64,000 bases of DNA from Minisyncoccota bacterium (GTDB lineage Bacteria; Patescibacteriota; Minisyncoccia; Phycocordibacterales; UBA9973): contig JBAYKO010000001.1 of assembly GCA_041664605.1 (NCBI GenBank), positions 9,220 through 73,219 on the forward strand. Direction: 5' to 3'. Under the pieces are notes generated by a model, which saw only the letters and a list, made by a program, of their open reading frames with translations, was not told the DNA's origin and did no database searches. Shown one piece after another: positions 5,370-21,714 of the stretch; within the stretch, counting starts at the first letter, position 1; each line of letters opens with the position of its first letter. The translations under genes and the position numbers were made by a program.

Positions 5370-5696
5370 ATGGAATTACAAGAAATAAACACAAAGGAAA
5401 TTGAAAAAAGAGAAAAGATATATTCAGCTTTACCTCATGAAAAAGCTCGTGAAATTTTAGTTACAAAATTGCAAACAGAATTTGGATATATAGTAGATAA
5501 AGCAATTAAACAAGCTAAGGATGGCGATTCTGAAGCTCGTAGGTGGCTCACAGATAGAGCGTGGGGCAAAGCTAAAGAAAGTATTGATATGAATGTACGA
5601 CCAGTATTTTCTCTAAAAGCATTATCTGAAAGTGCAGATAGAATGGAAAGAGAAGATAAAATGCCACCACCTATTCCCTTGGAACAACTTATTTAA
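5370..5696 (+). CDS. hypothetical protein (first gene of the element)
   Basis: 108-aa ORF with no recognisable motif. Confidence 0.4.
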   Translation: MELQEINTKEIEKREKIYSALPHEKAREILVTKLQTEFGYIVDKAIKQAKDGDSEARRWLTDRAWGKAKESIDMNVRPVFSLKALSESADRMEREDKMPPPIPLEQLI

Positions 5697-5739: not shown

Positions 5740-7890
5740 TTGAGAAATAGGGTCTTTTGTGGCATTATTAATAATATGTCATTAAATCTTTCAAACAACG
5801 AAAAACGAGATGTTATAAAGTTTTTAGAAGCTGGTGAACCTTTGCCAGAAAAGTATCGCTTTTTGCTATTTAAGGATGACAGAGAAGTGGAGCTTGTGTG
5901 GAATGGAAAGACTGAGGAGGTGACAAATGTTGTCCTTCCATTTCAGACCATTGAGCAGATTGATGAACCAAGAGAAGGAAAAGAATTTGGTGATGGTGGA
6001 ACTCTTTTTGATATGTCAGGGAAACAAATAACTGGCTGGACAAATAAACTTATCTGGGGAGATAATAAACTTATTCTTTCTTCTCTAAAAAATGGACCAC
6101 TTCGTAAGGAGATAGAAGCTCAGGGGGGCTTGAAATTAATCTACATAGACCCCCCATTTGATGTTGGAGCTGATTTCTCGATGGATATAAAAATTGGTGA
6201 TGGTGAAGATGAAGAAAGTTTTACTAAAAAGCCCTCAGTTATTGAAGAAATTGCTTTTCGTGATACTTGGGGTAATGGAGTAGATAGTTTTATTGCAATG
6301 ATTTATGAGCGTTTGAAATTAATGCATGATTTACTTGCAGAAGATGGAAGTATTTATGTACATTGCGATTGGAGACTTAATAGTTGTATGCGTTTAATCT
6401 TAGATGAGATTTTTGGAAAAGATAATTTTACAAATGAAATTATCTGGAAATATTTTGGACCAAACAGCTCAAAGAAAAATTATCCTAAAAAACATGATAC
6501 AATTTTATTTTATTCAAAAACAGATTCAAAAATATTTAATTTTGATGCGTGTTTGGTAGATTATGACGAAAAAGCAATTGCTAGATATGATAAAACTGAT
6601 AAAGATGGAAAAAAATATAAAATTTATTTTGATAAAGATGGAAAGGAAATAAGGGCTTATTTAAAAGAAGGAACCCCAACAGAGATATTTGAAATACCAT
6701 TTATTCAAGGAATAGAAACACAAAAAACTGATTATCCAACTCAAAAACCAGAAAAATTGCTAGAAAGAATTATAAAAGCATCTTCAAATGATGGTGACCT
6801 CATTGCTGATTTTTTCTGTGGCTCAGGGACAACACTTGCTGTTGCTGAAAAATTAAATAGAAAATGGATTGGTTCTGATTTGGGTAAATTTGGAATTCAT
6901 TCTACTCGTAAAAGAATGATAGGAATCCAAAGAGAACTCAAAAAAGCAGGAAAAGATTTTCGAGCATTTGAGATTCTTAATGTTGGTAAATATGAAAGAG
7001 AAAATTTCTTGAACATAAATGAAGATTTGAGAGCTGAACAGAAAGCTAAACAAGCAGAAAGAAAAGAAAAGGAATTTGTTAAACTGATTTTATCTGCTTA
7101 TAAAGCTGAGGCTGTAGAATCTTTTATAAATATTGTTGGTAAAAAACGGGATAGATTAATTGCAGTAGGACCAATAAATACTCCCGTATCTTCTGAATTA
7201 ATAAGACAAATAGTTTCTGAGTGTAAAGAAAAAAATATTACTAAAATTGATGTGCTAGGTTTTGATTATGAGATGGGATTAGATTTTTCTCAATACAAAG
7301 ATCAAAATATAGATATATTATTTAAAAAAATTCCAAGAGAAGTATTTGATAAAAAGGCTGTAGAAAAAGGACAAGTAAAATTCTATGACGTAGCTTTTCT
7401 TGAAGTTGAAGCAATTATTTCTGGTAAAGGAAATAGTAAAGAGCTTTCCATTAAATTGACTGATTTTTCTGTTTTTTATAATCAAGATAATGATGGGGAA
7501 ATAGAAGAAGCACTAAAACCGGGAAGTTCAAAAATTGTTGTTAAAAATGGACAAGTAATAAAAATAAACAAAGATAAACAAACTGAAAATGTTTCTGAAG
7601 AAATTTTAACAAAAAAATGGAGTGATTGGGTTGATTATTGGGCAATAGATTATGATTTTACAGACAGAAAAGAAATCATAAAAGTAATTAAAGATGGAAC
7701 AGAAAAAGAAGTTTGGACTGGAAGTTATATTTTTGATAATGAATGGCAGGAATTTAGAACAAAAAAGAAAAGAAGTCTTGAGTTGGTTTCTGCTCCCAAA
7801 GAATTACCCAAGGGAACTTATAAGGTAGCTGTAAAAATCGTCGACATTTTTGGTAATGATACTACAAGAGTAATTGATGTTAAGATATAA
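5740..7890 (+). CDS. mod: Type III restriction-modification methyltransferase (Mod), N6-adenine specific
   Basis: LIYIDPPFDVGADFSM (DPPF motif IV) and DFFCGSGTTLAVAEKLNRKWIGSDL (FxGxG motif I); the order motif IV before motif I is beta-class; 716 aa. Confidence 0.8.
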   Translation: MRNRVFCGIINNMSLNLSNNEKRDVIKFLEAGEPLPEKYRFLLFKDDREVELVWNGKTEEVTNVVLPFQTIEQIDEPREGKEFGDGGTLFDMSGKQITGWTNKLIWGDNKLILSSLKNGPLRKEIEAQGGLKLIYIDPPFDVGADFSMDIKIGDGEDEESFTKKPSVIEEIAFRDTWGNGVDSFIAMIYERLKLMHDLLAEDGSIYVHCDWRLNSCMRLILDEIFGKDNFTNEIIWKYFGPNSSKKNYPKKHDTILFYSKTDSKIFNFDACLVDYDEKAIARYDKTDKDGKKYKIYFDKDGKEIRAYLKEGTPTEIFEIPFIQGIETQKTDYPTQKPEKLLERIIKASSNDGDLIADFFCGSGTTLAVAEKLNRKWIGSDLGKFGIHSTRKRMIGIQRELKKAGKDFRAFEILNVGKYERENFLNINEDLRAEQKAKQAERKEKEFVKLILSAYKAEAVESFINIVGKKRDRLIAVGPINTPVSSELIRQIVSECKEKNITKIDVLGFDYEMGLDFSQYKDQNIDILFKKIPREVFDKKAVEKGQVKFYDVAFLEVEAIISGKGNSKELSIKLTDFSVFYNQDNDGEIEEALKPGSSKIVVKNGQVIKINKDKQTENVSEEILTKKWSDWVDYWAIDYDFTDRKEIIKVIKDGTEKEVWTGSYIFDNEWQEFRTKKKRSLELVSAPKELPKGTYKVAVKIVDIFGNDTTRVIDVKI

Positions 7891-7895
7891 AAACT

Positions 7896-8720
7896 ATGAG
7901 CTTTTTTAAAAACAATAAAGAAATAAAGACGGAAGATCTTAAGCTTTCAGATTATGATCAAATTTGGACCAAATTTTGTTTTCTTGATGAAACAGGAAGT
8001 TTAAATAATAATACAGACCCATTTTTTACTGTTGGAATAATAAAAATGAGCCAACCTTATTATTTGATGAATAAATTACTTTACGAAAGAAATAAAAGAA
8101 ATTTTTATGATGAGATGCATTTCAATAAACTTTCAAGAAAAAACATTGGTTTTGCAAAATTTGCACTGGAATCATTTTTTGATACAAAGGGTACTTATTT
8201 TTATTCTTATTCAGTTGACAAAGACGGAAGATATTTTAAAAAAGAATTTGGAGAAGACCCATGGAAAGCCTATGAGCAACTCACCACTCGTTTACTTGAG
8301 GCAGTTTTATCAGAGAAAGAAATTTTAGTTTTATTAGCTGATCATGTTACTGTTCCAAAAGAGATAAGATTTGAGGTTAATGTAAAAAAAAATATGAATA
8401 GCAAACTTGGTAGACTAGCAATTGCAGGGGTATGTCGCTTAGATTCTAGATCAAATGATTTATTACAAGTAGTTGATTTAATTATTGGGGCAATTAGTTA
8501 TGATTTAAAAGTAAAAGTAGGTGCAATAAAAGGAAATAGTGAATGCAAAATGGAGTTTCTTAAACTTTTAAAAGAAAACTTAGGATCAGATGATTTATTG
8601 AATGGATTTAGAAATAGAAATTTTAACATTTTTGTAGACAAAGATATGAAAACTAGATTACCCTTAGAAAACAATGATAATTTAGAAGATGAGGTAAATG
8701 AAAAAGGGCCATCATCCTAA
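7896..8720 (+). CDS. hypothetical protein, possibly DUF3800-like, sitting between mod and res
   Basis: N-terminal CFLDETGS resembles the DUF3800 IYIDESG start; no other motif recognised. Confidence 0.4.
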   Translation: MSFFKNNKEIKTEDLKLSDYDQIWTKFCFLDETGSLNNNTDPFFTVGIIKMSQPYYLMNKLLYERNKRNFYDEMHFNKLSRKNIGFAKFALESFFDTKGTYFYSYSVDKDGRYFKKEFGEDPWKAYEQLTTRLLEAVLSEKEILVLLADHVTVPKEIRFEVNVKKNMNSKLGRLAIAGVCRLDSRSNDLLQVVDLIIGAISYDLKVKVGAIKGNSECKMEFLKLLKENLGSDDLLNGFRNRNFNIFVDKDMKTRLPLENNDNLEDEVNEKGPSS

Positions 8721-8812
8721 CGGTTGACGCCCTTTTTCGGTACATTTGTATTATACATTAGACACCGGTGTAATACAAGTACAAATAAAAGTTATCCACA
8801 ATAAACAAATTT

Positions 8813-11500
8813 ATGGCATTACACAAAAATTTTCCAAAAGACCCATACGTAATTTTAGACCCTAGTATTAGGTGGTTTCCTGCTGATGAAGATTTGCGAG
8901 AAAAAGGGTTTGAAAAATTAATACCTCCACTTGTTGCTAGTTTAAGAAAGGAAATAAAAAAATGGAGAGATTCTAATTATGATGGAGCTAGTGATACTTC
9001 TAAGGCACTTTTAAATTTTTGGTTTAAAGAAGATCATATCTTGCAAAATAAAGATGGTTCAACTTATAACTTTAGATATTATTTTGCACAAAGAGAAGCA
9101 CTGGAAACTATTATTTGGCTTTACGAAGTTGCAAAAGTAAAAGATAAATATGATTTACTGAGATACAATTCTACTGGTGTATTAAGTGCAGATATGTTTA
9201 CTGAGGACTGGCTTCGTTTTGTAGTTAAAATGGCAACAGGTGCTGGCAAAACTAAAGTAATGAGCTTGGTTATTGCTTGGGCATATTTCCATAAAAAATA
9301 TGAAGAAGGTTCTGAGTTGGCTAAAAACTTCCTTTTAATAACACCAAACGTTATTGTTTTTGAAAGAATAAAAAATGATTTTGAAGGATTGAAGATTTTT
9401 TACGATGATCCTGTATTACCTGAGAATGGTTATGAAGGACAGAATTGGAATGATGATTTTCAAATAACATTACATTTACAAGATGAATTAAAAAACGTTT
9501 CAAATACAGGAAATATTTTTTTAACAAATATACACAGAGTTTATGAAAGCGACGTTTCTATTTTAAGTGCTGATGATGAAGATACAAGTGAGTATTTTCT
9601 TGGAGAAAAACCTGTTGTAAAAACAAATGATTCCAAAGTTGATTTGGGAATAATTATTCGTGATATAGAAGAATTAATAATTATTAACGATGAAGCTCAC
9701 CATATTCATGACGAAAAGATGGCTTGGTTTAAGTCTATTCAAGATATACACAATAAACTAAAAGCAAAAAATACAAAATTAGCTTTACAAATAGACATGA
9801 CTGCTACTCCGAAAAAGAATGATGGATCTATTTTTGTGCAGACAATATCAGATTACCCTTTAGTTGAGGCTATACATCAAAGAATTGTTAAAAATCCTGT
9901 AGTGCCAGATGAAGCAAGTTGTGGGAAATTAAAAGAGAATCAAAGCTCGTTATTTAGTGAAAAATATCGTGATTATATAAACTTGGGAGTAGAAGAATGG
10001 AGAAAGACATATGAATATTTAAAACCAACAGGAAAGAAATCTATTCTTTTTATAATGACTGACGATACTAAAAATTGTGATGACGTAGCTGAATATATTA
10101 GAGGAAACTTTTCTGATTTAAAAGATGCAGTTTTAACTATTCATACAAACAAAAGTGGTGAAATTTCAGAAAGTGTGACAGGTAAAAGCAAAGAAGAATT
10201 AGATATATTACGAAAACAAGCAAATGAAATAGATAGTTTAGAAAGTAAATTTAAAGTTATTGTTTCAGTTTTAATGCTTAAAGAAGGTTGGGATGTAAAA
10301 AATGTAACTACTATTGTTGGTCTTCGCCCATATACATCTGATGCAAAAATCTTACCAGAGCAGACACTTGGAAGAGGACTTAGGAGAATGTATTTTGGTG
10401 ATGAGAGTATAAAGGAATATGTGAGTGTTATAGGAACACCTGCTTTTATGGATTTTGTTAAATCTATCAAAGGTGAAGGAGTATTGCTTGAGAAAAGACT
10501 AATGGGAACTGGAGCAAAACCAATTACCCCGATGGTGATTGAAGTTGATAAAGATAATCCTAAAAAAGATATTGAGAAGCTTGATATTGAGATACCAGCA
10601 ATGTCTGCAAGAATACAAAGAGAGTATAAAAATCTTGGAGATTTGGATGTTTCTAAATTTGAAAATAGAAAATTTAAGATAAAAATATTTAGTGAGCAGG
10701 AAAAAAGAGAAATAAGATTCAATGATGTGGTGGGAGAACAATTTCACCATAGTACTGAGTTGAGTGGAAATATAAATATAGACTACCAGCGGGTTGTTGG
10801 ATTTTTTACCCAAGTGATAATGGGGGACCTTCGTCTTTTCGGTTGTTATGATGTTTTGTATGGGAAAATGAAAGAGTTTATTCAAAAATATCTTTTTGAA
10901 AAAGAAGTAGATTTAAATGATTTAAATATATTAACAAATCTTTCTGAAATAGAAGTTAGAAAAGAAATAAAAGATTCTTTTAAGAAAGCTATTAATGATT
11001 TAACTATTAAAGATAAAGGAGATACTGAAATAAAAAATTATATCAAAGTTAGTGAATCAAGACCTTTTGTTGTTAATGATAAGTCTTTTTTGATACCAAA
11101 AAAATCAGTGTTCAATCGAATTACTGGTGATAGTAATTTTGAATTGACTTTTGCTGAATTTTTGGAAAATTGTGATGATGTTATTTCTTTTGCAAAAAAC
11201 TTTATGAATAAAGAAGCAAGCGCTTTGCGAATTGAATATAAAAATACTGAAGGATTAATAGCAATATACTATCCTGATTTTTTTGTTAAAATTAATGACA
11301 AAATAATTTATATTATTGAGACAAAAGGAAGAGAAGAAGAGGATGATAAAATAAAATTTGAAAGACTTCAGCTATGGTGTGAAGATGTAAATTCTCGACA
11401 AACTAGAGCTGTATATAAAGCATTGTATATAAAACAAGAAATTTGGGAAGAAAACAAAGCTAAAAATTTTGATGAAATTATAAGACTTTTTAGTAAATAA
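8813..11500 (+). CDS. res: Type III restriction enzyme Res subunit (SF2 helicase plus C-terminal PD-(D/E)xK nuclease)
   Basis: Walker A MATGAGKTKV, DEAH box IINDEAHHI, C-terminal IIYIIETKGRE endonuclease motif; 895 aa, immediately downstream of mod. Confidence 0.8.
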   Translation: MALHKNFPKDPYVILDPSIRWFPADEDLREKGFEKLIPPLVASLRKEIKKWRDSNYDGASDTSKALLNFWFKEDHILQNKDGSTYNFRYYFAQREALETIIWLYEVAKVKDKYDLLRYNSTGVLSADMFTEDWLRFVVKMATGAGKTKVMSLVIAWAYFHKKYEEGSELAKNFLLITPNVIVFERIKNDFEGLKIFYDDPVLPENGYEGQNWNDDFQITLHLQDELKNVSNTGNIFLTNIHRVYESDVSILSADDEDTSEYFLGEKPVVKTNDSKVDLGIIIRDIEELIIINDEAHHIHDEKMAWFKSIQDIHNKLKAKNTKLALQIDMTATPKKNDGSIFVQTISDYPLVEAIHQRIVKNPVVPDEASCGKLKENQSSLFSEKYRDYINLGVEEWRKTYEYLKPTGKKSILFIMTDDTKNCDDVAEYIRGNFSDLKDAVLTIHTNKSGEISESVTGKSKEELDILRKQANEIDSLESKFKVIVSVLMLKEGWDVKNVTTIVGLRPYTSDAKILPEQTLGRGLRRMYFGDESIKEYVSVIGTPAFMDFVKSIKGEGVLLEKRLMGTGAKPITPMVIEVDKDNPKKDIEKLDIEIPAMSARIQREYKNLGDLDVSKFENRKFKIKIFSEQEKREIRFNDVVGEQFHHSTELSGNINIDYQRVVGFFTQVIMGDLRLFGCYDVLYGKMKEFIQKYLFEKEVDLNDLNILTNLSEIEVRKEIKDSFKKAINDLTIKDKGDTEIKNYIKVSESRPFVVNDKSFLIPKKSVFNRITGDSNFELTFAEFLENCDDVISFAKNFMNKEASALRIEYKNTEGLIAIYYPDFFVKINDKIIYIIETKGREEEDDKIKFERLQLWCEDVNSRQTRAVYKALYIKQEIWEENKAKNFDEIIRLFSK

Positions 11501-11504
11501 AAAT

Positions 11505-12710
11505 ATGATAACAAATATAATACTCGCAATATTAGTAGTCGGAGTTGTTTATTTAATTTTTAAGAAAGAAGATATAAATTTAAATGACGATGGAAAAATT
11601 ATTGAAGAAAATGCTCGTTTAAAAGCAGAGGTAAGTCAAAAAGATAAAAACATTGGACAGATAGCAATGGAACTTCAATCAGAAAAAACTCAAAAAGATG
11701 AATTATCTGGTAAGAATAAACGAATGTTTGTTGAAATTACAAACTTAAAAGCTAAAAATACTAGCATACTAACTGAAAAGGAAGATTTAGTAAAAGAAGT
11801 CAGCAATTTTAAGGCCACGGAAGAAAGAAAAAACAAAGAATTTGATGACAAAATTCAAAAATTAGAAGAAGCAAAACTTGCTCTTGAGGACGAAAGGAAA
11901 AGGGTTAGAAGAGAAGATGAGGAAAAGATTCAAAGTGAAAAAGAAGAAAGGAATCGAATGTGGGCTGAGCACGAAGAAGTTGTAAAGGTTAAGTTAACAG
12001 AATTATGTAAAACCCCTCAATATGCCTTTCAATATTATGACAACAATAATTTACCAAATGGTTTTGGAGGGAAATTTAAACCTGATTTTTTGATTGAATT
12101 TCTTGAACAATATGTAATTTTTGATGCTAAAGTTTCGGAGTCTGATTTACAGGGTTATATCAATAATAATGTAAAATCAACTGTAGAAAAAATAAATAAT
12201 AATCCAAATATTTATCCGATGGTATTTTTTATAGTACCAACCGATACAATAAAATCTTTAAAAAAGACCCATTTTTATGAACAAGGTTATAATTTTTTCG
12301 TTATTTCACCAGAAGCAATTGAAATTATTCTTGCTTCTTTAAAAAAAATTACTTCTTATGAATTAGCTGAACAATTAGATCCAAGGGATAGAGAGAATAT
12401 TGTTAATTTAATAGCAGAATTTGATTATCATATAAACATGAGAAATGCTTTAGATATTTTAGCATCAGAAAGTGGTGTTTCTGTTTTGAAAAAAGCGGAT
12501 TCACTTAGAAATGATATTAAGGAAGAAATTTTTCAAAAAAAGGGAAAAATGCGGTTACAACAATTTACTCCTACTGATATTAAAACTCTAATGGTTAGTA
12601 CTGAAACTCAACGAGAAAAAATAGACGAGCTGGTCTCTCCTAAAGTAGCTATTTCTGAAGATACTTTAAAAAAAGTAAGACCTGTTTTAGGAAAAAAGAA
12701 TAAAAAATAA
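11505..12710 (+). CDS. RmuC-family protein (N-terminal TM helix, long coiled coil, C-terminal restriction-endonuclease-like domain)
   Basis: TM helix ILAILVVGVVYLIF; K/E-rich coiled coil; KPDFLIEFLEQYVIFDAKVSE matches the RmuC pattern KPDF.I.....V.IDAK. Confidence 0.55.
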   Translation: MITNIILAILVVGVVYLIFKKEDINLNDDGKIIEENARLKAEVSQKDKNIGQIAMELQSEKTQKDELSGKNKRMFVEITNLKAKNTSILTEKEDLVKEVSNFKATEERKNKEFDDKIQKLEEAKLALEDERKRVRREDEEKIQSEKEERNRMWAEHEEVVKVKLTELCKTPQYAFQYYDNNNLPNGFGGKFKPDFLIEFLEQYVIFDAKVSESDLQGYINNNVKSTVEKINNNPNIYPMVFFIVPTDTIKSLKKTHFYEQGYNFFVISPEAIEIILASLKKITSYELAEQLDPRDRENIVNLIAEFDYHINMRNALDILASESGVSVLKKADSLRNDIKEEIFQKKGKMRLQQFTPTDIKTLMVSTETQREKIDELVSPKVAISEDTLKKVRPVLGKKNKK

Positions 12711-12715
12711 ATTTT

Positions 12716-13390
12716 ATGGAAGAAAAAAAATACAAACTAAGCCCGTCAGATTTTGCTTACCTCTATGAAGAGTGTAAATGCTGTTATTATTTAAAAATAA
12801 AGCATGGTATACAACGACCATCCTTACCATTTCCAGCTGTATTTGGTGCCATAAATACTCGCATTCAAGGAACATTGATTGGAAAAAATCTTCAAGAACT
12901 TTCTCCGGACTTGCCGGAAGGATTAGTTGAAAGCCAAGAAAAATTTGTTGAGTCAAAAGTAATTCCGGGTACCAATTTATATATTAAGGGTAAATATGAT
13001 CTTTTGGTTAAACAAGACGATGGAACTTATATAGTTGTTGATTTTAAAATAACTTCTCCGGATGATGACAAAATTATTAAATATCAAACACAGCTTCAAG
13101 CATATCATTATGCTTTTGAATTTTCAGAAAAAGGAGAATCTAAGGAAGTTTCAAAATTAGGTTTAATCGTTGTATATCCAGATCAAGTTAAATTTGCTAA
13201 AGGAGAAGCATTTTTAAGTTTTCCTCCGAAATGGCTTGAAATAGAAATTAAGAGAGATTCCTTTTTAAAATTTATGAAAGAGGTGAATTATCTACTTGAG
13301 GGCCCAACTCCTCCAGAAAATCCAAATTGTAAATGGTGTGAATATCGTCATTATGGAGAAAAGTATGCCCATTTGTTTGAAAATAAATAA
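12716..13390 (+). CDS. Cas4/RecB-like PD-(D/E)xK nuclease (DUF83-like) with Cys cluster
   Basis: N-terminal CKCC, core VVDFKIT, QhxxY motif TQLQAYHYAF, C-terminal CKWCEY. Confidence 0.6.
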   Translation: MEEKKYKLSPSDFAYLYEECKCCYYLKIKHGIQRPSLPFPAVFGAINTRIQGTLIGKNLQELSPDLPEGLVESQEKFVESKVIPGTNLYIKGKYDLLVKQDDGTYIVVDFKITSPDDDKIIKYQTQLQAYHYAFEFSEKGESKEVSKLGLIVVYPDQVKFAKGEAFLSFPPKWLEIEIKRDSFLKFMKEVNYLLEGPTPPENPNCKWCEYRHYGEKYAHLFENK

Positions 13391-13392
13391 AT

Positions 13393-13614
13393 TTATTCCG
13401 TTGGGTATCCTGTGGTGTTTCCGGGACACTCAAATTCACCACATTTTTCTAGAGCATTTATTCTGGATTCCTTAGCACTTTCCCTATATATCCATGTTAA
13501 TAAAATAAATCCAATCAATAAAATAATTACGATAGTACATCGATGAATTTTTTTATCTTTTTCATCTATTTCTTCACGAAGAGATTGAACTTTATCTTCT
13601 AAAATTTTTTTCAT
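13393..13614 (-). CDS. small membrane protein, hypothetical
   Basis: 73 aa with one TM helix. Confidence 0.35.
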   Translation of the reverse strand: MKKILEDKVQSLREEIDEKDKKIHRCTIVIILLIGFILLTWIYRESAKESRINALEKCGEFECPGNTTGYPTE

Positions 13615-13617
13615 AAA

Positions 13618-13911
13618 TTATTCTTGTTCATATTTATAATCTAATGGTATAGTCTCGTAATCTATATCTAGCTCTTCAATAATAATACCTTTCTTAGAAC
13701 AAAATTCTTTAAAATCTGATGGAACAAAAAAACTTTCTGGATATATGTAAGAATTAGCTTGTTCTTCATAACATGTAATAATTTTTTTATTGTCCTGATA
13801 CATATATAAAAAAAATACTACAAGAAAAAATAAAATAAATGGATATATTTCTTTCCATAATTTTTTATTTCTCTCAGATCTTTTTATGTTTTCTTCAAGT
13901 TTATTGAACAT
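13618..13911 (-). CDS. small membrane protein, hypothetical
   Basis: 97 aa with one TM helix; stacked 3 bp from the neighbouring ORF. Confidence 0.35.
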   Translation of the reverse strand: MFNKLEENIKRSERNKKLWKEIYPFILFFLVVFFLYMYQDNKKIITCYEEQANSYIYPESFFVPSDFKEFCSKKGIIIEELDIDYETIPLDYKYEQE

Positions 13912-13917
13912 TGTTTT

Positions 13918-14520
13918 TTAATTATTAAGATCAGCGATTGAAATGGAAAATGAAATAAAAGGTTTTGGTTTTTTACTAAAATATAAGGAAATAGCATATC
14001 TACCGTCTTTTTCTTTTAAAAACCAACAATTAGTTTCTATATTAAAGTTTTGGTAAAGGATGTTTGCTTGACTGATGGACTCTGTAGAACTATTTGGTAA
14101 TCCATATAGTTTAATAATATATCCTAATATTTCTTTAAACCTTCTTTTTAGTTGAATTCTTGGAAATAATCCGTTACAAAATAATTGCACTCTATAATTA
14201 GCTAGCCATGTCGAGGTTTTTATTTCACCTAACTCATTTTTTAATAAATTATCAATATTCACCGGTAAATAATCTAACTCAAGTTCTCCAAAAAAAATAT
14301 TATTTTCATTAAATTTAAAAACAAAATTTTTTTGTCCGGGATATAAATCCCAACCCATGGCATATGACATACTGGCATATTGTTTACGGGTTTCCTCCGT
14401 TATGTTTTCTATAGAGTCTTTAAAATTAGAAGTTATTTTTTCTAATCCTTGAATTTCACCTATGTTTTCTATCCCATACTTAATAAGTGAAAAATATTTT
14501 GAATTATTTTCGTTTTTCAT
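13918..14520 (-). CDS. hypothetical protein
   Basis: 200-aa ORF in an operon-like stack with the two small membrane genes. Confidence 0.4.
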   Translation of the reverse strand: MKNENNSKYFSLIKYGIENIGEIQGLEKITSNFKDSIENITEETRKQYASMSYAMGWDLYPGQKNFVFKFNENNIFFGELELDYLPVNIDNLLKNELGEIKTSTWLANYRVQLFCNGLFPRIQLKRRFKEILGYIIKLYGLPNSSTESISQANILYQNFNIETNCWFLKEKDGRYAISLYFSKKPKPFISFSISIADLNN

Positions 14521-14713
14521 ATTTTTATAGTTAATTTAATAATTGACAAACAAAAAGCCCATCACGGGTAGAGACCGAAATCTCTCATATTGGTTTCCCA
14601 ATATGGCGTATGAAGCGACCCCATGACGGGTTTTTTATGCTTCATACGACTTATTCACCATGCCCTTATTACTAAAGGTTTAGGCTACTTGTTTATTTGG
14701 TTGTATTGATATT

Positions 14714-15724
14714 ATGGCAAAAAACAGTAATATTAACAATATGCGTCTAGAAGAAATAGAAAATATCACAAAAAAAATAAGAGCTATTCCAATTGATTTA
14801 AAATCTGACCAAAATAGTCTGTCTACTTTTTTAGAAATAATGATTAATTACGGTTCTCAATTAGATTATTTGTTTTCTAGCTGGGATACAACAAACCCAA
14901 TTTGGGAAATTCACGAAGACTTACTTTTTGCATATGAAAAATTTAAACTGCGTTGTGTTCACTCATTAATAAAATCAAAGTTTGGAATACAAAATAAAAT
15001 TAAAAGTAAATACCCCTCACTTACTGAAGATGATGGGGTTACTGATTTATCTTTACCTCTTATTCATCCAGATCTTACAGATGGTAGAGTATTACTTAAT
15101 AATAAAATAATTCGCGTGGGGGTAATATATGGAGAAGAAGACGTTACAAGACCAACCCCTGAAGGAATAAAGCAATTTAAACTAGCCCATGAATCCCTTA
15201 AGAAAAAAATAGAAGCGCTCTCTTTAATTTTACGAAATGAAATTAATATTAAAGAAATTAAATCAGAAAAATCAAAATTAAAATTTAAACATAAATTACC
15301 CGCCGGAACAATGTGGGAAAGTTTTTTGTTTGTTTTTGTAGATTCAGAAAATGTCCAAATTATTATTGGAAATAAAAATGAGATTTTGAATTTTAAAGAA
15401 TTAGGGCTTGATAGTAAAAAAAATGGTAAACCTACTTTGCCTTGGATATTTTTTCATATTCTTGCTCAAAACAATGGGGAACTAAAACCAAATTCTAAAG
15501 ATAAAAATGATTCATATAAAAAAGCAAAACAAGCACTCATTGCTACTTTAGAGAACTTCTTTTCAATAGATTTTGACCCATTTTTTCCTTATCATACTTC
15601 CCCTGAAAAAGTTGGTAATTCTTACAGAACTAAATTTAAAATATGTTGTGAAAATCAAGTTAATAATAAAGAAACAGAAGATGTAGAAAAATCGTTTTTT
15701 GATCAATGTATTGAATCTATTTGA
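14714..15724 (+). CDS. hypothetical protein
   Basis: 336-aa ORF, divergent from 13918..14520. Confidence 0.45.
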   Translation: MAKNSNINNMRLEEIENITKKIRAIPIDLKSDQNSLSTFLEIMINYGSQLDYLFSSWDTTNPIWEIHEDLLFAYEKFKLRCVHSLIKSKFGIQNKIKSKYPSLTEDDGVTDLSLPLIHPDLTDGRVLLNNKIIRVGVIYGEEDVTRPTPEGIKQFKLAHESLKKKIEALSLILRNEINIKEIKSEKSKLKFKHKLPAGTMWESFLFVFVDSENVQIIIGNKNEILNFKELGLDSKKNGKPTLPWIFFHILAQNNGELKPNSKDKNDSYKKAKQALIATLENFFSIDFDPFFPYHTSPEKVGNSYRTKFKICCENQVNNKETEDVEKSFFDQCIESI

Positions 15725-15746
15725 GTGATATATAGAGTTAAAATAC

Positions 15747-15773
15747 AAAACCTCCTTTTCAGGAGGTTTTTTT
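15747..15773 (+). terminator. intrinsic terminator
   Basis: aaaacctcc ttttca ggaggttttttt. Confidence 0.7.
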
Positions 15774-15813
15774 GGGCGAAATTTCGCCATTAGTCTATAA
15801 GAAAGGGTAAATT

Positions 15814-15881
15814 GCGCCTGCAAATACTCATGATTAAGGATTGAATCGCAGGCGCAGTTCAATCCTTAATCATGAGTATTT
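15814..15881. repeat. interleaved inverted repeats: a 24-bp perfect inverted repeat around a 12-bp core, plus an 8-bp inverted repeat A/A'
   Basis: gcgcctgc-aaatactcatgattaaggattgaa-tc-gcaggcgc-ag-ttcaatccttaatcatgagtattt followed by a T-rich tail. Confidence 0.8.
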
Positions 15882-15887
15882 TATTTT

Positions 15888-16085
15888 ATGACAGACAAAA
15901 ATTTATACAAAAGAGAATATGTTGAATATATATATCAATTATTATCAAAAAATTTTTTTGATGATGGATCATGTACTTATTGTAAAAAGTTGATTTACTT
16001 TAAGAAATTTAAAAATAATTTAAGTTTAAAAGAATTTACCATCTCCGGTCTTTGTCAAAAGTGTCAAGATTTAACTTCTAAATAA
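15888..16085 (+). CDS. small zinc-ribbon protein
   Basis: CTYCKK...CQKCQ; 65 aa; translationally coupled to the primase gene. Confidence 0.45.
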   Translation: MTDKNLYKREYVEYIYQLLSKNFFDDGSCTYCKKLIYFKKFKNNLSLKEFTISGLCQKCQDLTSK

Positions 16086-16087
16086 TT

Positions 16088-18292
16088 ATGGAAACAGAAA
16101 ACGAACAATTTAAAAAAAATTCATTACCTACTATATTGGAAGAGGCTTTGAGATATATTTCTATTGGTTTTTCTCCAATTCCTCTTGGACTAATTACAAA
16201 AAATTCTGATAATAAAAAAACAATTGAATATCCTATTAAATGGAAAGAATTTCAATACAAACAAGCTACACCAGAACAAATAAAAAAATGGGATTGTAAA
16301 AATCTTGGAATCGTTACTGGTGAAGTGTCTGGCGTTTTAGTTCTCGATGCTGATTCTTATAAAAAAAGTTTTGATTCCGAGCTTTTAAGATCTTTTAGAT
16401 TACCAATAACACCCGTGCAACAAACAGCCAGTGGTGGCACTCAATATTTTTTTAAATTACCAAAAGGACTAATTATAAAAAATGATGTTTGTATTGGACA
16501 TAAAGAATCTGGTATTGATATTCGTGCAAGTGGAGGAATGGTAATAGTTCCACCATCAAACACTCCATATGGAGAATATATTTGGCTTATAAGCCCTTTT
16601 GATACGCCATTGGCGGATATACCACAAAATTTACTAGAACTACTTAAAGATGATTCTGAAAATGAATATAAAACTAGAAAAACATTACCAGATCTTGTTG
16701 GGCTTAAAGAAGGAGAAGGTAGAAATAATGCAATGGCTTCATTTATTGGGAAATTATTAAACGCAACTCCGAAAGAGAATTGGGATAAGGAGGTTTGGGT
16801 TATGGCTCAAGAAGTAAATTTAACTTATAAACCGCCATTACAAAATAATGAACTCCGCAGTATATATGAATCTATAACAAAAATTGCAAACGAGAACATA
16901 AGTAAGCTAAGTATTGAAAATGAAAAAGAAACTGACCCTGAATCTTCTATAAAAAACAATTTAAGAAAAATTTTAAAAAAGAATCAACCTCAAGGTATAT
17001 GGGAGATATCAGAGTATTTGATAAATCGTCATAATATAAAAACAATTGGTAATAGAGATAATACAAAAGACATTTACCTCTATAAGAATGGAGTATACAA
17101 AATTGATTATGGTTTAATAAAGGAAGAAATTGTGCACATAACTCAAGACCTAGTGAAAAGTACTTTTAGGGAAGAAGTTATAAAAATGATAAAAGAAAAA
17201 ACTTACAAAGATAGAGAATGTTTTATTATTGATCGAAATCTCATTAACTTTAAAAATGGAATATACAATATTAAAAGCAAGGAACTTATCGTACATAAAC
17301 CAGAATATTTATTTTTACATCAACTTCCAATAAATTACAATCCGAGTGCAGATTGTCCAAAATTAAAAGAATTCTTAAATCAAATACTTGATGAAGAGTC
17401 CGTAAAAGTAATTCAGGAATGGTTTGGGTATTGCTTATACAGAAGCTATTTTATTAAAAAAGCAATTATTTTACTTGGCGAAAGAGATACTGGTAAAACA
17501 ACCTTATTAAAAATACTGACAAAATTTTTAGGGATAGAAAATATATCAAGTGTTAGTCTTCAAAAACTTAGTTCAGATAAATTTGCCATTTCAAACCTGT
17601 TTCAAAAACAAGCAAATATTTATGATGACCTATCTTTTAAAGACATAAATGACAACGGAATATTTAAAATGCTTACTGGTGGAGGTTCTGTAACTGGAGA
17701 AAGGAAGTTCGGAGACTTGTTTCCATTCAACAATTACGCAAAACTAACTTTTTCCTGTAATAAAATCCCAAACATTAAAGATACAAACGATGATGCGTAT
17801 TTTAGCAGGTGGATCTTATTAAGGTTTGAATATAAATCTGATAATCCCGATAAGTTTTTATTTGAAAAAATAAGCACTGACATAGAAATGTCTGGGTTAT
17901 TAAACTTTGTCTTAGAAGGACTTTATCGCATATTAGATACTCAAGATTTTAACTACAAGAAAACACCGGAAGAAATAAAATTAGAAATGACGATGTCTGC
18001 ATCATCGTTGGCACAATTTGTTAATGATGAACTAGAGGTAGTGTCAGACCCTAACATTTTTATAACCAAGGATGATATATATCAAGAATTTATAAATTAT
18101 GTCAAAAAACATTCTCTACCAGTCGCTTCCAAGGAAGCAATTGGTAAAAATCTTCATAGATTTATAACAGTTAATACTGGAAAGAAAAGTATTAAAAACG
18201 ATGAAACTGGAAAGATGGAACAGGTAAATTCATGGCTGGGACTAAAGTTTAAGAATTTTAAATCTAAAAACAACGAAATACCTTCGGGGTAG
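16088..18292 (+). CDS. bifunctional primase-polymerase plus D5/P4-type SF3 helicase (replication protein of the element)
   Basis: N-terminal Prim-Pol with VLVLDAD; Walker A LLGERDTGKTTLLKIL; 734 aa. Confidence 0.75.
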   Translation: METENEQFKKNSLPTILEEALRYISIGFSPIPLGLITKNSDNKKTIEYPIKWKEFQYKQATPEQIKKWDCKNLGIVTGEVSGVLVLDADSYKKSFDSELLRSFRLPITPVQQTASGGTQYFFKLPKGLIIKNDVCIGHKESGIDIRASGGMVIVPPSNTPYGEYIWLISPFDTPLADIPQNLLELLKDDSENEYKTRKTLPDLVGLKEGEGRNNAMASFIGKLLNATPKENWDKEVWVMAQEVNLTYKPPLQNNELRSIYESITKIANENISKLSIENEKETDPESSIKNNLRKILKKNQPQGIWEISEYLINRHNIKTIGNRDNTKDIYLYKNGVYKIDYGLIKEEIVHITQDLVKSTFREEVIKMIKEKTYKDRECFIIDRNLINFKNGIYNIKSKELIVHKPEYLFLHQLPINYNPSADCPKLKEFLNQILDEESVKVIQEWFGYCLYRSYFIKKAIILLGERDTGKTTLLKILTKFLGIENISSVSLQKLSSDKFAISNLFQKQANIYDDLSFKDINDNGIFKMLTGGGSVTGERKFGDLFPFNNYAKLTFSCNKIPNIKDTNDDAYFSRWILLRFEYKSDNPDKFLFEKISTDIEMSGLLNFVLEGLYRILDTQDFNYKKTPEEIKLEMTMSASSLAQFVNDELEVVSDPNIFITKDDIYQEFINYVKKHSLPVASKEAIGKNLHRFITVNTGKKSIKNDETGKMEQVNSWLGLKFKNFKSKNNEIPSG

Positions 18293-18409
18293 GTAAGATA
18301 TGCTAGTTAATTTTAACAATTATAATTATTTTTTGATTTTATATTTATTTAAGTAATCAATAACAACTATGATATCTAGTATAAATTTGGAAAACTAATA
18401 ATCAAAACT

Positions 18410-18898
18410 ATGAAAATAAACAAAAATAAAAACAAAATAAAAACTATTAAAAGCACGCAAGATAAGAATAAGAGCTCTTATGATAGCCTTAACCCCTTAA
18501 TTTTAGCTAAACAGATTCTAATAAAAGGTGAATCAAGGCGAGAATTCGTTGATTTTGTTGAGCAATTACGCGTCTCGCTGGGTATAAACACACCAGTTGA
18601 AGCAGAAATATTCAAAAAATATATTTTTTCTTCGTGGAAATTGAGGAGAATGAGAGAAATGGAAAAAAATATTTTGAATAGTCAACAAATATTCCAAGAG
18701 AAAAAAGAATACGATTATTTTGGAGACGTTATCTCTAAAAAAACACCTTCCAAAAAAAGAAGGGTTAGGAATATAAGCATGATTTACATAAATGATGAGA
18801 TACAGAAAGTATTAAATTTTCAGGACAAACTAGAAAAACAAACAACCAAAATTCTTAGACAACTAAGAGAAGAACAAAATTTAAATAAAATTGATTAA
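18410..18898 (+). CDS. hypothetical basic protein
   Basis: 162-aa K/R-rich ORF. Confidence 0.4.
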   Translation: MKINKNKNKIKTIKSTQDKNKSSYDSLNPLILAKQILIKGESRREFVDFVEQLRVSLGINTPVEAEIFKKYIFSSWKLRRMREMEKNILNSQQIFQEKKEYDYFGDVISKKTPSKKRRVRNISMIYINDEIQKVLNFQDKLEKQTTKILRQLREEQNLNKID

Positions 18899-18918
18899 TA
18901 ATATTTGAAGATGATATA

Positions 18919-19116
18919 ATGAATGAGCTACGTAAAAGTTTAATAAGTTATCAAAATTTTGAACCTAAAGAGGGGCAACGAAAGCTTTTACGTAGCAGTA
19001 AAGACTTAATTCGTTGTCCCTCTTTAGATTATAAATACGTTGTTTCTTCGGAGCTTGAGGTCGATCGAGCTTTTGATATTCTTTTTGAGGAGACAATGAA
19101 ACTAAATGAAAAATAG
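18919..19116 (+). CDS. hypothetical small protein
   Basis: 65-aa ORF located 3 bp upstream of the recombinase gene. Confidence 0.35.
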   Translation: MNELRKSLISYQNFEPKEGQRKLLRSSKDLIRCPSLDYKYVVSSELEVDRAFDILFEETMKLNEK

Positions 19117-19118
19117 TT

Positions 19119-20738
19119 ATGGAAAAAAATAAATTAATTGCAGTTTATGGAAGAGTATCAACTTCAAACCAAGAAAATGAGGGGACTATCGAAACACAAC
19201 TTTCTGCTGTAAATAAATTTACTATGGATAATGGTTTTATTATTGTTAAACAATATATTGATAATGGCTGGTCAGGTGATTCTTTGGCTCGTCCAGCTTT
19301 AGATCAACTTAGAATGGATGCTAAAAATAAAAACTGGGAATCAGTTTTGATTTATGATCCAGACAGATTAGCTCGGCGTGGAGCTTGGCAAGAAGTTGTA
19401 ATAGAAGAGTTAAAGGAACTGGAGATAGATGTTCTTTTTGTTACTATTCCAAAACCCAAAACCGATGAAGACATTATCATGTATAAAATGAGAGGAGTTT
19501 TTACTGAGTATGAAAGAATGAAAATAAAAGAAAGATTTAGACTTGGTAAGGTTCGTAAAGCGAATGAAAATAATATTATTTTAACGGAAGCACCTTATGG
19601 TTATAATTTCATAGTAAAAAAAGGGAAGAGAGGGGATGTTGATTTTAAGCAAGGATACTTGGAGATAAATGAAAGAGAATCACAAATTGTTAAGAATATA
19701 TTTTCTTGGGTAGACGAAGATGGTTTGAGATTGAGAGGCATAGTTAGAAAGCTTCAAAAATTAGGAGTACCTCCTCGCAAAAGTAAGCGTGGCGTTTGGA
19801 ATACAAGTACGTTGAGTACTTTATTAAGAAATAAAACATATATCGGTGAGGGTCATTATGGAGCCTCGTACGCTACCGTACCAGTTAATCCTCTTAAGAA
19901 AGAAACTTACAAAAAGATTAAAAAAACCAGCAGACGAATGAAACCAGAAAGTGAATGGATTAAAATTACTACTCCTAAAATTATTGATGAAGATTTATTT
20001 TATAGAGTTGGAGAAAAGTTAAAATCTAATTTTATAATGTCAGAAAGAAATACTAAGAATGAATATCTTCTTACTGGTAAGATTTGGTGTAATTGTGGAA
20101 AGAGACGAGCTGGAGAAGGCCCACAACGAGGCAAACATCTTTATTACAGATGCACTGATCGAATTAAAAGTTTTCCTTTACAACCTACATGTAAAGAAAA
20201 AGCTTGGAATGCTAGAATTGTGGATCCGTTGGTATGGAAAAAGATTACAGAAATTATGAGTTCTCCTCAATTATTATCTAAACAAGTTGAGCGCTGGATC
20301 AGTAATCAAAATAAAGGGATTTGTACTTCGACTATAAATACTGAAGAAACAAAAAAGGAGATAATTAAACTTGAAGATCAGGAAGATCGATATACTAAAG
20401 CTTATGGTGCCGGCGTAATTACAATCGATCAATTAAAAGAATACATTACTCCTGTTAAGGAAAAGATATTATCTTTTAATAATCAAATAACCAACGCTCA
20501 ATTAGAAAGCCAACAGGTTGATCAAAAAACATTTCCAGAGTTTAGTCAGTTAGAGATCTTTGCCAAAAAGGCTTCAGAGGCTCTTAATAACTTGAATTTT
20601 AACGCCAAAAAAGCCATAATCAGAGGTATTATAGATAAAGTGGTCGGAAACAAACAAGAATTACAAGTTTATGGAAGAATTCCAATAGAATCAAATATCA
20701 ATGTCTTCTCTTTCAATCGGGATTGTGGGATTACCTAA
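19119..20738 (+). CDS. large serine recombinase (integrase)
   Basis: N-terminal resolvase domain AVYGRVSTSNQ (catalytic Ser); recombinase domain; C-terminal zinc ribbon CNCGKRRAG...YYRCTD; 539 aa; the 3' end overlaps ychF by 38 nt. Confidence 0.85.
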   Translation: MEKNKLIAVYGRVSTSNQENEGTIETQLSAVNKFTMDNGFIIVKQYIDNGWSGDSLARPALDQLRMDAKNKNWESVLIYDPDRLARRGAWQEVVIEELKELEIDVLFVTIPKPKTDEDIIMYKMRGVFTEYERMKIKERFRLGKVRKANENNIILTEAPYGYNFIVKKGKRGDVDFKQGYLEINERESQIVKNIFSWVDEDGLRLRGIVRKLQKLGVPPRKSKRGVWNTSTLSTLLRNKTYIGEGHYGASYATVPVNPLKKETYKKIKKTSRRMKPESEWIKITTPKIIDEDLFYRVGEKLKSNFIMSERNTKNEYLLTGKIWCNCGKRRAGEGPQRGKHLYYRCTDRIKSFPLQPTCKEKAWNARIVDPLVWKKITEIMSSPQLLSKQVERWISNQNKGICTSTINTEETKKEIIKLEDQEDRYTKAYGAGVITIDQLKEYITPVKEKILSFNNQITNAQLESQQVDQKTFPEFSQLEIFAKKASEALNNLNFNAKKAIIRGIIDKVVGNKQELQVYGRIPIESNINVFSFNRDCGIT

Positions 20739-21714
20739 TGTTGGAAAATCCACACTCTTTAATGCATTAACAAAAAAATCTGTACCGGCGGAAAATTATC
20801 CATTCTGTACCATTGATCCATCAGTGGGCATTGTTCCCGTGCCTGATGAAAGATTACAAATCTTATCTCTATTTTCTAAGTCAGTAAAAACAATTCCGGC
20901 TATTATTGAATTCGTTGATATTGCAGGATTAGTTGCTGGTGCGTCAAAAGGAGAGGGACTTGGAAATAAATTTCTTTCTAATATTAGAGAAGTGGATGCA
21001 ATTGCCCATGTGGTTCGTACATTTCAAGATGATTTAGTTATTCATGTTGCAAATAAAATTGATCCATTAAATGATATTGGTGTCATAAATTTAGAATTGA
21101 TTTTATCTGATATGGAAGTTGTTTCTAAAAGAATTGCTAATTTGCAAAAAGATGTAAAAAAGAATGACAAGGAAGCGATTTTAGAAGAAGCCTTTTTAAA
21201 GAGAATTGAAAAAGCACTAGAAGAAGGAAAATTAGCAACTGAAGTTGATTTGACAGATGAAGAAAAATCTAAGATAAAATCTCTGAATCTTTTGAGTTTA
21301 AAACCAATGATTTATGTGATGAATGTTTCTGAGGCGACCGAAAATACTGAAATAGAAATTCCAAAAGAAGCAGATGGAAAAGAAGCAATTTTTGTAAAAA
21401 TTGACCCAGTTTTTGAAAAAGGATTTGATGATTTGATAAAAAAAAGTTATGAGCTTTTAGGACTTGAGACTTACTTTACAACAGGAGAAGATGAGACTAG
21501 AGCTTGGACTATCAAAAAGGGAAGTACAGCACCAATTGCCGGTATGGCGATTCACACAGATTTTCGAGATAAATTTATTCGAGCTGAAGTGGTATATTGG
21601 AAAGATTTAATTGATTCAGGATCATATACAAATGCTCGATCTAAAGGATTAGTAAGAACAGAAGGGAAGGAATATGTGGTAAAAGATGGGGATGTAATTG
21701 AGTTTAAAATATAA
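20701..21714 (+). CDS. ychF: ribosome-binding ATPase YchF
   Basis: GIVGLPNVGKSTLFNALT P-loop and a C-terminal TGS domain. Confidence 0.85.
   Translation: MSSLSIGIVGLPNVGKSTLFNALTKKSVPAENYPFCTIDPSVGIVPVPDERLQILSLFSKSVKTIPAIIEFVDIAGLVAGASKGEGLGNKFLSNIREVDAIAHVVRTFQDDLVIHVANKIDPLNDIGVINLELILSDMEVVSKRIANLQKDVKKNDKEAILEEAFLKRIEKALEEGKLATEVDLTDEEKSKIKSLNLLSLKPMIYVMNVSEATENTEIEIPKEADGKEAIFVKIDPVFEKGFDDLIKKSYELLGLETYFTTGEDETRAWTIKKGSTAPIAGMAIHTDFRDKFIRAEVVYWKDLIDSGSYTNARSKGLVRTEGKEYVVKDGDVIEFKI

Follow-up and report, generated by a model that had tools for sequence, protein, structure and literature searches.

A probable mosaic of Type III restriction-modification genes and separately travelling nuclease genes in a Candidate Phyla Radiation bacterium

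We analysed a 64-kb window of DNA (64,000 nucleotides of contig JBAYKO010000001.1, assembly GCA_041664605.1) from a Candidate Phyla Radiation (CPR) bacterium of the Minisyncoccota. At positions 5740-13390 of this window, five genes lie on the plus strand: the methyltransferase gene (mod) and the restriction gene (res) of a Type III restriction-modification (RM) system, a DUF3800 gene between them, and two more nuclease-like genes, ORF4 and ORF5, directly behind res (Table 1). The translations confirm the five open reading frames (ORFs) and the motifs by which a first-pass annotation of the sequence had recognised them, as well as intergenic gaps of 5, 92, 4, and 5 nt. From the tight spacing, that annotation had suggested a single transcription unit, and it had raised the possibility of an undescribed composite, or accessory-augmented, restriction system. 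Instead of one co-evolved five-gene system, we propose a mosaic defence island in which four units travel independently (mod with res, a DUF3800 cassette, ORF4, and ORF5); we give this reading a probability of roughly 0.6.

Table 1. Features of the five-gene stretch and its surroundings (window positions)
Feature	Position	Strand	Description
108-aa ORF	5370-5696	+	43 nt 5' of mod
mod	5740-7890	+	716 aa; Type III RM methyltransferase
DUF3800 gene	7896-8720	+	274 aa (825 bp); coding part of a self-contained cassette
Antisense small RNA (predicted)	8697-8743	-	convergent; about 47 nt, with short 5' leader, hairpin, and U-tract; ends predicted
Hairpin AAAAAGGGCC..TAAC..GCCCTTTTT	8701-8737	both	DUF3800 stop codon in the loop
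Sigma-70-type promoter	8750-8778	-	TTGTAT-17-TATAAT, with TG before the -10 box; aimed at the hairpin
DnaA-box-like 9-mer TTATCCACA	8792-8800	+	just upstream of the antisense -35 box; right-hand limit of the conserved tail
res	8813-11500	+	895 aa; Type III RM restriction subunit
ORF4	11505-12710	+	401 aa; transmembrane helix, coiled-coil stalk, PD-(D/E)XK core, helical tail
ORF5	12716-13390	+	224 aa; solo Cas4-like (RecB-family) PD-(D/E)XK nuclease, PF12705
LOOT RNA (RF03000)	14570-14686	-	divergent intergenic region
PrimPol + D5_N primase	16088-18292		gene of the putative integrative element
Large serine recombinase	19119-20738		gene of the putative integrative element; overlaps the start of ychF by 38 nt
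ychF	20701-21714		housekeeping gene
Leucyl-tRNA synthetase	24401-27301		NUDIX domain insertion

By their motifs and profile matches, mod and res are a canonical Type III pair, as the first-pass annotation had said. The translation of mod contains IYIDPPF (DPPF near residue 147) and FFCGSG (FCGSG near residue 361), so that motif IV (DPPF) precedes motif I (FxGSG), which is the order of the beta-class N6-adenine methyltransferases. The protein matches Pfam N6_N4_Mtase (1.4e-48) and PADLOC MTase_III (2.2e-115). The listed TTG start at 5740 is probably too early, because the closest homologue (67% identical, from locus L098) aligns from residue 17 and there is an in-frame ATG at residue 13; the true start is probably this ATG, at about 5776. 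The translation of res contains GAGKTKV (Walker A), NDEAHH (DEAH), and YPDF...IIETKG (a C-terminal PD..ExK endonuclease), and it matches Pfam ResIII (1.6e-20), RE_endonuc (weakly, residues 763-856), and PADLOC REase_III (1.8e-19). In EcoP15I-type enzymes, Mod methylates the recognition site and Res cuts unmodified DNA by ATP-driven sliding and a C-terminal PD-(D/E)XK domain. The window pair shares with EcoP15I and EcoP1I a beta-class N6-adenine mod followed by a res with superfamily 2 helicase motifs and a C-terminal PD-(D/E)XK domain. It differs in that res is nearest to the NCBIfam family BPTD_3080, with a score under the family cutoff (3e-82), and in that a foreign cassette of 0.9 kb splits the two genes: the 825-bp DUF3800 gene and a 92-nt tail intervene where mod and res would otherwise adjoin in one operon.

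ORF5 was first labelled Cas4-like, which fits its fold and its motifs (ECKCC, VVDFK, QTQLQAYHY, and CKWCEY). It passes the PDDEXK_1 model (PF12705, 2.9e-12, 47.5 bits against a cutoff of 22) and matches PADLOC Cas4 (7e-11), and C20, C23, C205, C208, D95, D109-x-K111, and Q126..Y130 are invariant in 30 homologues. In contrast, it falls under the cutoffs of the models for Cas4 proper (PF01930, 18.9 bits vs. 22.7; TIGR00372, 33.5 vs. 65). There is no cas family among the window's genes at 111-31860 or in seven other ORF5 contexts (clustered regularly interspaced short palindromic repeat, or CRISPR, arrays were not searched for).

These seven contexts come from different CPR lineages and carry homologues that are 68-90% identical to ORF5. 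Together with the window they make eight, and in seven of the eight, ORF5 is the last gene behind an RM cluster whose type differs from place to place (I, IIG, II/IV, or III). Two of the clusters are Type I: HsdS-HsdR-YgjP in L173 and HsdM-NYN-HsdS-HsdR on a JGI contig. Besides the window there is a second Type III cluster, mod-res-DUF4747 (L176/L177). The others are a cluster of an EcoRI-type methylase, GmrSD-HNH, and a C5-methylase (L172), Tsp45I with an Mrr-type nuclease (L175), and a Type IIG MmeI-like enzyme (L178); the remaining context, L174, has no RM genes. We found no ORF4 homologue in any of the seven other contexts and no relatives of ORF5 in IMG/VR. We also asked whether ORF5 belongs to the backbone of the integrative element whose genes lie just downstream, and rejected this idea because the genes at 13393-20738 have no homologue in the other ORF5 loci. 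In L176/L177 (4521-5880), the Type III operon is followed by the DUF4747 gene, a 172-aa gene, and then the ORF5 homologue. CPR RM operons seem to collect varied trailing genes.

Solo-Cas4 genes are common in CPR bacteria and adjoin RM genes in DPANN archaea, and UvrD-Cas4-like fusions adjoin Type III Mod/Res (Hudaiberdiev et al., 2017, PMC5704561). ORF5 resembles both as a PF12705 RecB-type nuclease outside CRISPR loci, but it is free-standing, only 224 aa long, and has a CxxC...CxxC cysteine set. So the theme of Cas4 beside RM is known, but we are aware of no description of this free-standing subfamily or of its occurrence with RM systems of several types.

ORF4 begins with a hydrophobic helix, followed by KPDFLIEFLEQYVIFDAK. 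An AlphaFold2 (AF2) model (predicted local distance difference test score, pLDDT, of 79) has a transmembrane helix at residues 2-19, a helix of about 140 residues (29-169), an alpha/beta core (177-267), and a helical tail. The top 36 Foldseek matches in the PDB are almost all PD-(D/E)XK nucleases, with weak E-values, and include R.BspD6I, HindIII, Bax1, McrC, Can2, and Hjc; the residues D194, D207, and K209 of the nuclease core are invariant. Sequence searches of Pfam, NCBIfam, PHROGs, and PADLOC gave no real match, and a search of PDB sequences with the ORF4 profile gave coiled-coil noise only. ORF4 itself is 100% identical to a hypothetical protein from a "Candidatus Paceibacterota" metagenome-assembled genome, which places the window in a CPR genome. 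The family comprises 377 clusters at 50% identity among 1.84e9 proteins, without a Pfam assignment. It is found across CPR classes at 42-76% identity, and CPR bacteria make up most of the 80 representative-genome loci that we compared.

The neighbours of ORF4 in these genomes are usually not RM genes. In 50 of the 80 loci, a UvrD/PcrA helicase or a UvrD-PF12705 fusion is directly adjacent on the same strand, and in 9 of the 80 there is a Cas4-like (PF12705) nuclease domain, fused or free, beside the ORF4 homologue. Neighbours of this kind (UvrD/PcrA or AddA-like UvrD-nucleases) point to a role for ORF4 in processing DNA ends or recombination intermediates. In contrast, none of 86 loci (and none of the 80 in representative genomes) has this mod, DUF3800 gene, or res near the ORF4 homologue at E < 1e-5; at E < 1e-3 the only case is L090, where a distant Type III pair lies about 4 kb away. 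RM genes lie near 3 of 19 close homologues; in the 10-kb flanks of the 61 distant homologues, none was detected. One Peribacterales genome (metagenome-assembled genome, or MAG, SMAG_U8109) has two copies of a free PF12705 nuclease gene followed by an ORF4 homologue, on different contigs (L050 and L078). In L088 (3083-5905), a gene for an OLD-family TOPRIM/AAA_15 ATPase (693 aa) and a 246-aa gene lie about 1.3 kb upstream of a nuclease-ORF4 pair; these two genes are possibly Gabija- or PARIS-like.

Given these neighbours, ORF4 and ORF5 might both be host repair or recombination genes (for an RmuC-like and an AddB/Cas4-like nuclease), partners of UvrD/PcrA near which RM islands happen to insert, with no functional link to restriction. 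The CPR-wide spread of the ORF4 family and its operonic association with UvrD-family helicases would fit, as would the housekeeping contexts of the ORF4 homologues in L001 and L088 and the report that solo-Cas4 evolves like regular cellular genes (PMC5704561). We consider this explanation rather unlikely, for two reasons. First, ORF5 homologues of 68-90% identity are followed by genes that are not conserved, and yet they have an RM cluster of another type upstream; a fixed insertion hotspot explains this pattern poorly. Second, ORF4 homologues that are 72-73% identical lie in MAGs outside CPR (Chitinophagales and Bacillota) beside conjugation genes. In both L007 (8443-9756) and L090 (6496-7803), a gene for a TrwB/TraG-like coupling protein directly precedes the ORF4 homologue, with RM genes further upstream, and L090 also has a relaxase gene and a TraG gene. 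These placements imply horizontal movement, so ORF4 may travel on conjugative elements.

The DUF3800 gene lies in the gap between mod and res. The first-pass annotation had recognised it by its start, FLDETGS (CFLDETGS in the translation), and the assignment holds: the protein matches PF12686 (1e-9, 39.7 bits against a cutoff of 21) and the PADLOC candidate model PDC-M04A (1.9e-18). We found nothing relevant in the literature on "PDC-M04". Its invariant residues are D31 and E32 (the DE motif) and Q191 and D194 (the QxxD motif). In the AF2 model (pLDDT 85) the protein has an RNase H2-like nuclease fold, with RNase HII/H2 as the top Foldseek matches (8e-5), and published modelling of DUF3800 arrived at the same fold (PMC7736814, PMC10910872).

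To place this gene, we scanned metagenomes and obtained 80 loci with DUF3800 homologues that are 56-72% identical to it. Only five of them (L098, L134, L126, L149, and L116) have the arrangement mod-DUF3800-res, whole or in part. L098 holds the closest relative of the RM pair, with 67-69% identity in all three genes, and encodes neither ORF4 nor ORF5. In L134, mod and res are 78% and 91% identical to those of the window, yet the DUF3800 protein is only 59% identical. L126 and L149 have fragments of the arrangement, and in L116 the Type III pair is only 26-29% identical to the window pair and so represents an independent lineage. Another 13 loci have the order HsdM-DUF3800-...-HsdS-HsdR, with the DUF3800 gene inside a Type I operon. 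The gene thus sits after hsdM or hsdS in Type I systems and, in two or more unrelated lineages of Type III systems, after mod, while elsewhere it adjoins PolA, ClpB, RpoC, ParB, or the 3' ends of tRNAs. In L091, L106, and L141 it stands directly behind an apparent tRNA 3' end (judged by eye; the tRNA itself was confirmed only in L091), which suggests that tRNA-proximal sites are used as well. Of the non-redundant loci, 32 have 1.5 kb or more of sequence on the upstream side; in 13 of these, RM genes lie within 8 kb, and in 8, a methyltransferase gene is directly upstream. Association with RM is therefore enriched but not obligatory. The sequence 5' of the DUF3800 ATG is unrelated between contexts, whereas about 95 nt on the 3' side of the gene are conserved in 77 of the 80 loci and in the window (the core motif is likewise present in 77 of 80). 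We conclude that the DUF3800 gene and its tail form a self-contained cassette of about 0.9 kb and are no dedicated Type III accessory. The first-pass annotation had called the gene atypical for a Type III operon; the same interruption recurs after mod in L098, L116, and L134.

The conserved tail fills the 92-nt gap between the DUF3800 gene and res with a hairpin and a minus-strand promoter. Identity across loci is 82% in the tail core, 62% in the coding sequence, and 30% beyond the tail; the core motif does not occur in 1.48 Mb of DNA from other CPR loci. The tail matches no Rfam family, either at the gathering threshold or at E <= 10. The hairpin, AAAAAGGGCCATCGTCC-TAAC-GGTCGACGCCCTTTTT, lies at 8701-8737 of the window. 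Across the loci, 93.8% of cells in the alignment are paired and five pairs show compensatory changes, while none of 500 shuffles did as well; in the window copy, a double change has replaced G:C by A:U. Folding energies of the hairpin range from -19 to -28 kcal/mol for both strands (z of -5 to -6.8), and in the window they are -19.4 kcal/mol on the plus strand and -21.9 kcal/mol on the minus strand (z of about -5). Because A- and T-runs flank it on both sides, it looks like a bidirectional intrinsic terminator. We rejected a second candidate hairpin, the palindrome ATACTGTA..TACAGTAT: by eye, its left arm varies without compensation, and its right arm is the -10 box of the promoter.

The promoter points back at the hairpin. 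In the window it reads TTGTAT-17-TGTATAAT; the family consensus is TTGAC(A/T)-16/17-TATACT. In most of 61 non-redundant tails, the promoter lies 18-23 nt upstream of the core of the hairpin. From this position and from the fold, we predict a cis-antisense small RNA (sRNA) of about 50 nt, which would overlap the last eight or so codons and the stop codon of the DUF3800 gene. The DnaA-box-like 9-mer is found with at most one mismatch in 39 of the 61 tails and in none of 61 control windows. It is not simply a common motif of this genome, as there are only three copies in the 64-kb window.

A simpler account of the tail is that it is a strong bidirectional terminator with an outward signal for the gene next to it and no antisense RNA, and that DUF3800 is a latent RM-linked nuclease controlled at the protein level, like PrrC. 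On either strand the hairpin does look like an intrinsic terminator, the cassette often lies between the modification or specificity genes and the restriction gene, as prrC does, and the -35 box in the window is weak. We nevertheless judge this account unlikely. The minus-strand promoter keeps its fixed distance from the hairpin, and it matches at least 10 of the 12 consensus positions in 42 of the 61 tails; the corresponding counts are 3 for the forward strand and about 2 for shuffled sequences. Also, conservation is 78% in the 23 nt past the stop codon and 62% in the coding sequence, and a terminator by itself would not require so high a level there.

The cassette has likenesses to three kinds of known system. 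First, at the prr locus the Type I system EcoprrI harbours the gene of the anticodon nuclease PrrC, and other genes too are embedded in Type I operons. In the prr locus as here, a latent nuclease gene lies between the modification or specificity genes and the restriction gene, and DUF3800 fills this slot in both Type I and Type III systems. However, DUF3800 is not homologous to PrrC (it has an RNase H2-like fold), it has its own terminator and a predicted antisense RNA, and it also occurs far from RM genes. Second, in type I toxin-antitoxin systems such as txpA/RatA and bsrG/SR4 of Bacillus subtilis, a convergent antisense RNA overlaps the 3' end of the toxin gene. The predicted sRNA would likewise pair with the 3' end of the mRNA and share a bidirectional terminator with it, but those toxins are small hydrophobic membrane peptides and DUF3800 is a soluble 274-aa protein with a nuclease fold. 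Third, DUF3800 proteins linked to type VII retrons or to Cas12a2 belong to the same Pfam family and share the DE and QxxD motifs and the RNase H2-like fold (PMC7736814, PMC10910872), and eleven small RNA motifs, DUF3800-I to -XI, unrelated to each other and of unknown function, accompany DUF3800 genes (PMC5737381). The window cassette is like these last in pairing a DUF3800 gene with a small conserved non-coding RNA element. It differs in that there is no reverse transcriptase or Cas gene nearby and in that its element belongs to no Rfam family and is predicted to be a convergent cis-antisense hairpin over the stop codon. The tail thus looks like a further, and anatomically clearer, case of the company that DUF3800 keeps with small RNAs.

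Another explanation concerns ORF4, which the first-pass annotation had assigned to the RmuC family. ShdA, of the Shield system, is a membrane-anchored RmuC-domain DNase that confers defence on its own and lowers transformation (PMC10270631), and ORF4 might be a stand-alone effector of this kind, a membrane RmuC-type DNase that acts on infection, with ORF5 as its modulator or unrelated to it. As in RmuC and ShdA, ORF4 has an N-terminal membrane anchor, a long coiled coil, and a cytoplasmic PD-(D/E)XK domain; the defence island in which it lies is on a mobile element or close to one, and its close homologues lie on contigs that look like conjugative elements. Several motifs are collinear between ORF4 and E. 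coli RmuC (W-x-E, (K/Q)PD, (I/F)DAK, hhhhP, and (I/V)SP). Against this, none of 83 members of the ORF4 family matches the RmuC hidden Markov model (PF02646), which recognises E. coli RmuC at 3.4e-109: there was no match at E <= 1 for 30 close members (among the matches listed, the 25 commonest of 74 families), none at E <= 0.01 for 53 distant members (25 of 32 families listed), and none at E <= 10 for six isolated C-terminal domains. Profile alignment of ORF4 to nine RmuC sequences with hhalign gave P values of 0.0055 (104 columns) and 0.0023 (234 columns) with a probability of 7-13%, and alignment to E. coli RmuC alone gave a probability of about 2-3%. In PADLOC, ORF4 matched only the coiled-coil-type LmuB (0.0046), with the presence of a ShdA model in that release unconfirmed. 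We therefore describe ORF4 as RmuC-like in architecture and only possibly a member of the RmuC family. Unlike RmuC, its family is largely from CPR bacteria and usually stands beside UvrD, and most members have UvrD/PcrA neighbours with no RM genes in the 10-kb flanks of the 61 distant homologues. On balance, a Shield-like effector strikes us as quite improbable.

That the five genes are one co-evolved, co-transcribed system, with the DUF3800, RmuC-like, and Cas4-like genes as dedicated Type III accessories, is very improbable: the genes do share a strand and (apart from the 92-nt tail) gaps of 4-5 nt, the three extras are all nucleases, and DUF3800 and ORF5 are each enriched near RM genes, but the synteny is not shared by any of the 86 ORF4 loci, the seven other ORF5 contexts, or L098, while the DUF3800 cassette also adjoins housekeeping genes and carries its own terminator and promoter, and this terminator-like hairpin and convergent promoter between DUF3800 and res make a single five-gene transcript doubtful. 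What survives of the composite proposal is a weaker version, an RM island with recurrent accessory nucleases, which our data support: two of the three extras, the DUF3800 cassette and ORF5, are separately enriched near RM genes.

Several observations weigh against our preferred reading of a mosaic of independent units. The spacing from res to ORF4 and from ORF4 to ORF5 (4-5 nt) is very tight. Also, the Type I operons of L004 and L173, whose HsdR proteins are 68% identical, have an ORF4 homologue behind them in the first case and an ORF5 homologue in the second, which hints that ORF4 and ORF5 are linked beyond chance. Because of the spacing and of these related Type I operons, res, ORF4, and ORF5 may form a functional unit that is specific to this lineage. 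Furthermore, the gene directly upstream of the ORF4 homologues of L088 and L029 (76% identical), which are in a housekeeping context, encodes a free PF12705 nuclease of 261 aa that shares 24% identity and the CxxC...CxxC pattern with ORF5. The association of ORF5 with RM is drawn from eight contexts. As for the cassette, more than half of its copies are away from RM genes, so a role specific to RM is not required. Finally, the prediction of the sRNA draws only on the consensus of promoter and terminator; the window's -35 box matches at just three of six positions (its -10 box is perfect, with the preceding TG), and a generic scan for promoters and terminators missed both the hairpin and the promoter of the window.

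If the mosaic reading is correct, then the island could have arisen and work as follows. A DUF3800 cassette of about 0.9 kb would have inserted directly after mod; such cassettes would favour the slot between methyltransferase or specificity genes and restriction genes, which is the slot of prrC in Type I systems. The cassette may be a selfish or a backup nuclease. Its sRNA, by covering the 3' end of the DUF3800 mRNA, would restrain the expression or activity of DUF3800, as in a type I toxin-antitoxin system. Type III restriction would meanwhile create DNA breaks. In other bacteria, RecBCD or AddAB handle the degradation of such ends; here, judging from its contexts, ORF5 would most likely resect or degrade the ends that restriction leaves, and ORF4, tethered to the membrane, would process DNA ends or recombination intermediates, possibly those that come from restriction. 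More tentatively, the DUF3800 gene, the hairpin sRNA, and the DnaA-box-like 9-mer as an operator could together be an undescribed RNA-controlled addiction or backup-defence cassette that spreads among CPR genomes and lodges by preference between methyltransferase and restriction genes of Type I and Type III operons, and ORF5 could help CPR restriction systems in general.

The island is bordered upstream by genes for an ABC ATPase and a 1209-aa surface protein. For the small 108-aa ORF just ahead of mod, on the same strand, searches of Pfam, NCBIfam, PHROGs, and PADLOC gave no match, and the loci that we fetched contain no homologue of it. Downstream of the five-gene stretch, the genes at 13393-20738 belong to a putative integrative element, with three small minus-strand ORFs, a 336-aa ORF, a LOOT RNA, a primase, and a recombinase. 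The RM island may be cargo of this element or a separate insertion. The LOOT RNA scores 80.9 bits in Rfam against a gathering score of 46.4 and lies between divergent genes at 13918-14520 (minus strand) and 14714-15724 (plus strand), both without a Pfam match. Further downstream, the leucyl-tRNA synthetase has a NUDIX domain (residues 387-506, 3e-15) inserted after its editing domain.

CRISPR is missing from most CPR bacteria, which probably depend heavily on restriction. Little is known of the ways in which their RM systems are extended, and this locus offers three recurring add-ons. The DUF3800/antisense-RNA cassette is the most original by-product of our analysis, and its gene, shared terminator, and antisense promoter give a concrete anatomy to the puzzle of DUF3800 and small RNAs (PMC5737381). 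ORF4 defines an unannotated family (the 377 clusters) of UvrD-linked, membrane-tethered nucleases. The locus also holds a caution for annotation: in streamlined genomes, tight spacing of genes is no evidence for one system. Finally, the occurrence of ORF5 behind four types of RM system extends an earlier hint (PMC5704561) and suggests a generic step that follows restriction. If so, the resection of DNA ends by ORF5 might serve defence, or it might salvage nucleotides in cells that have neither RecBCD nor de novo nucleotide synthesis.

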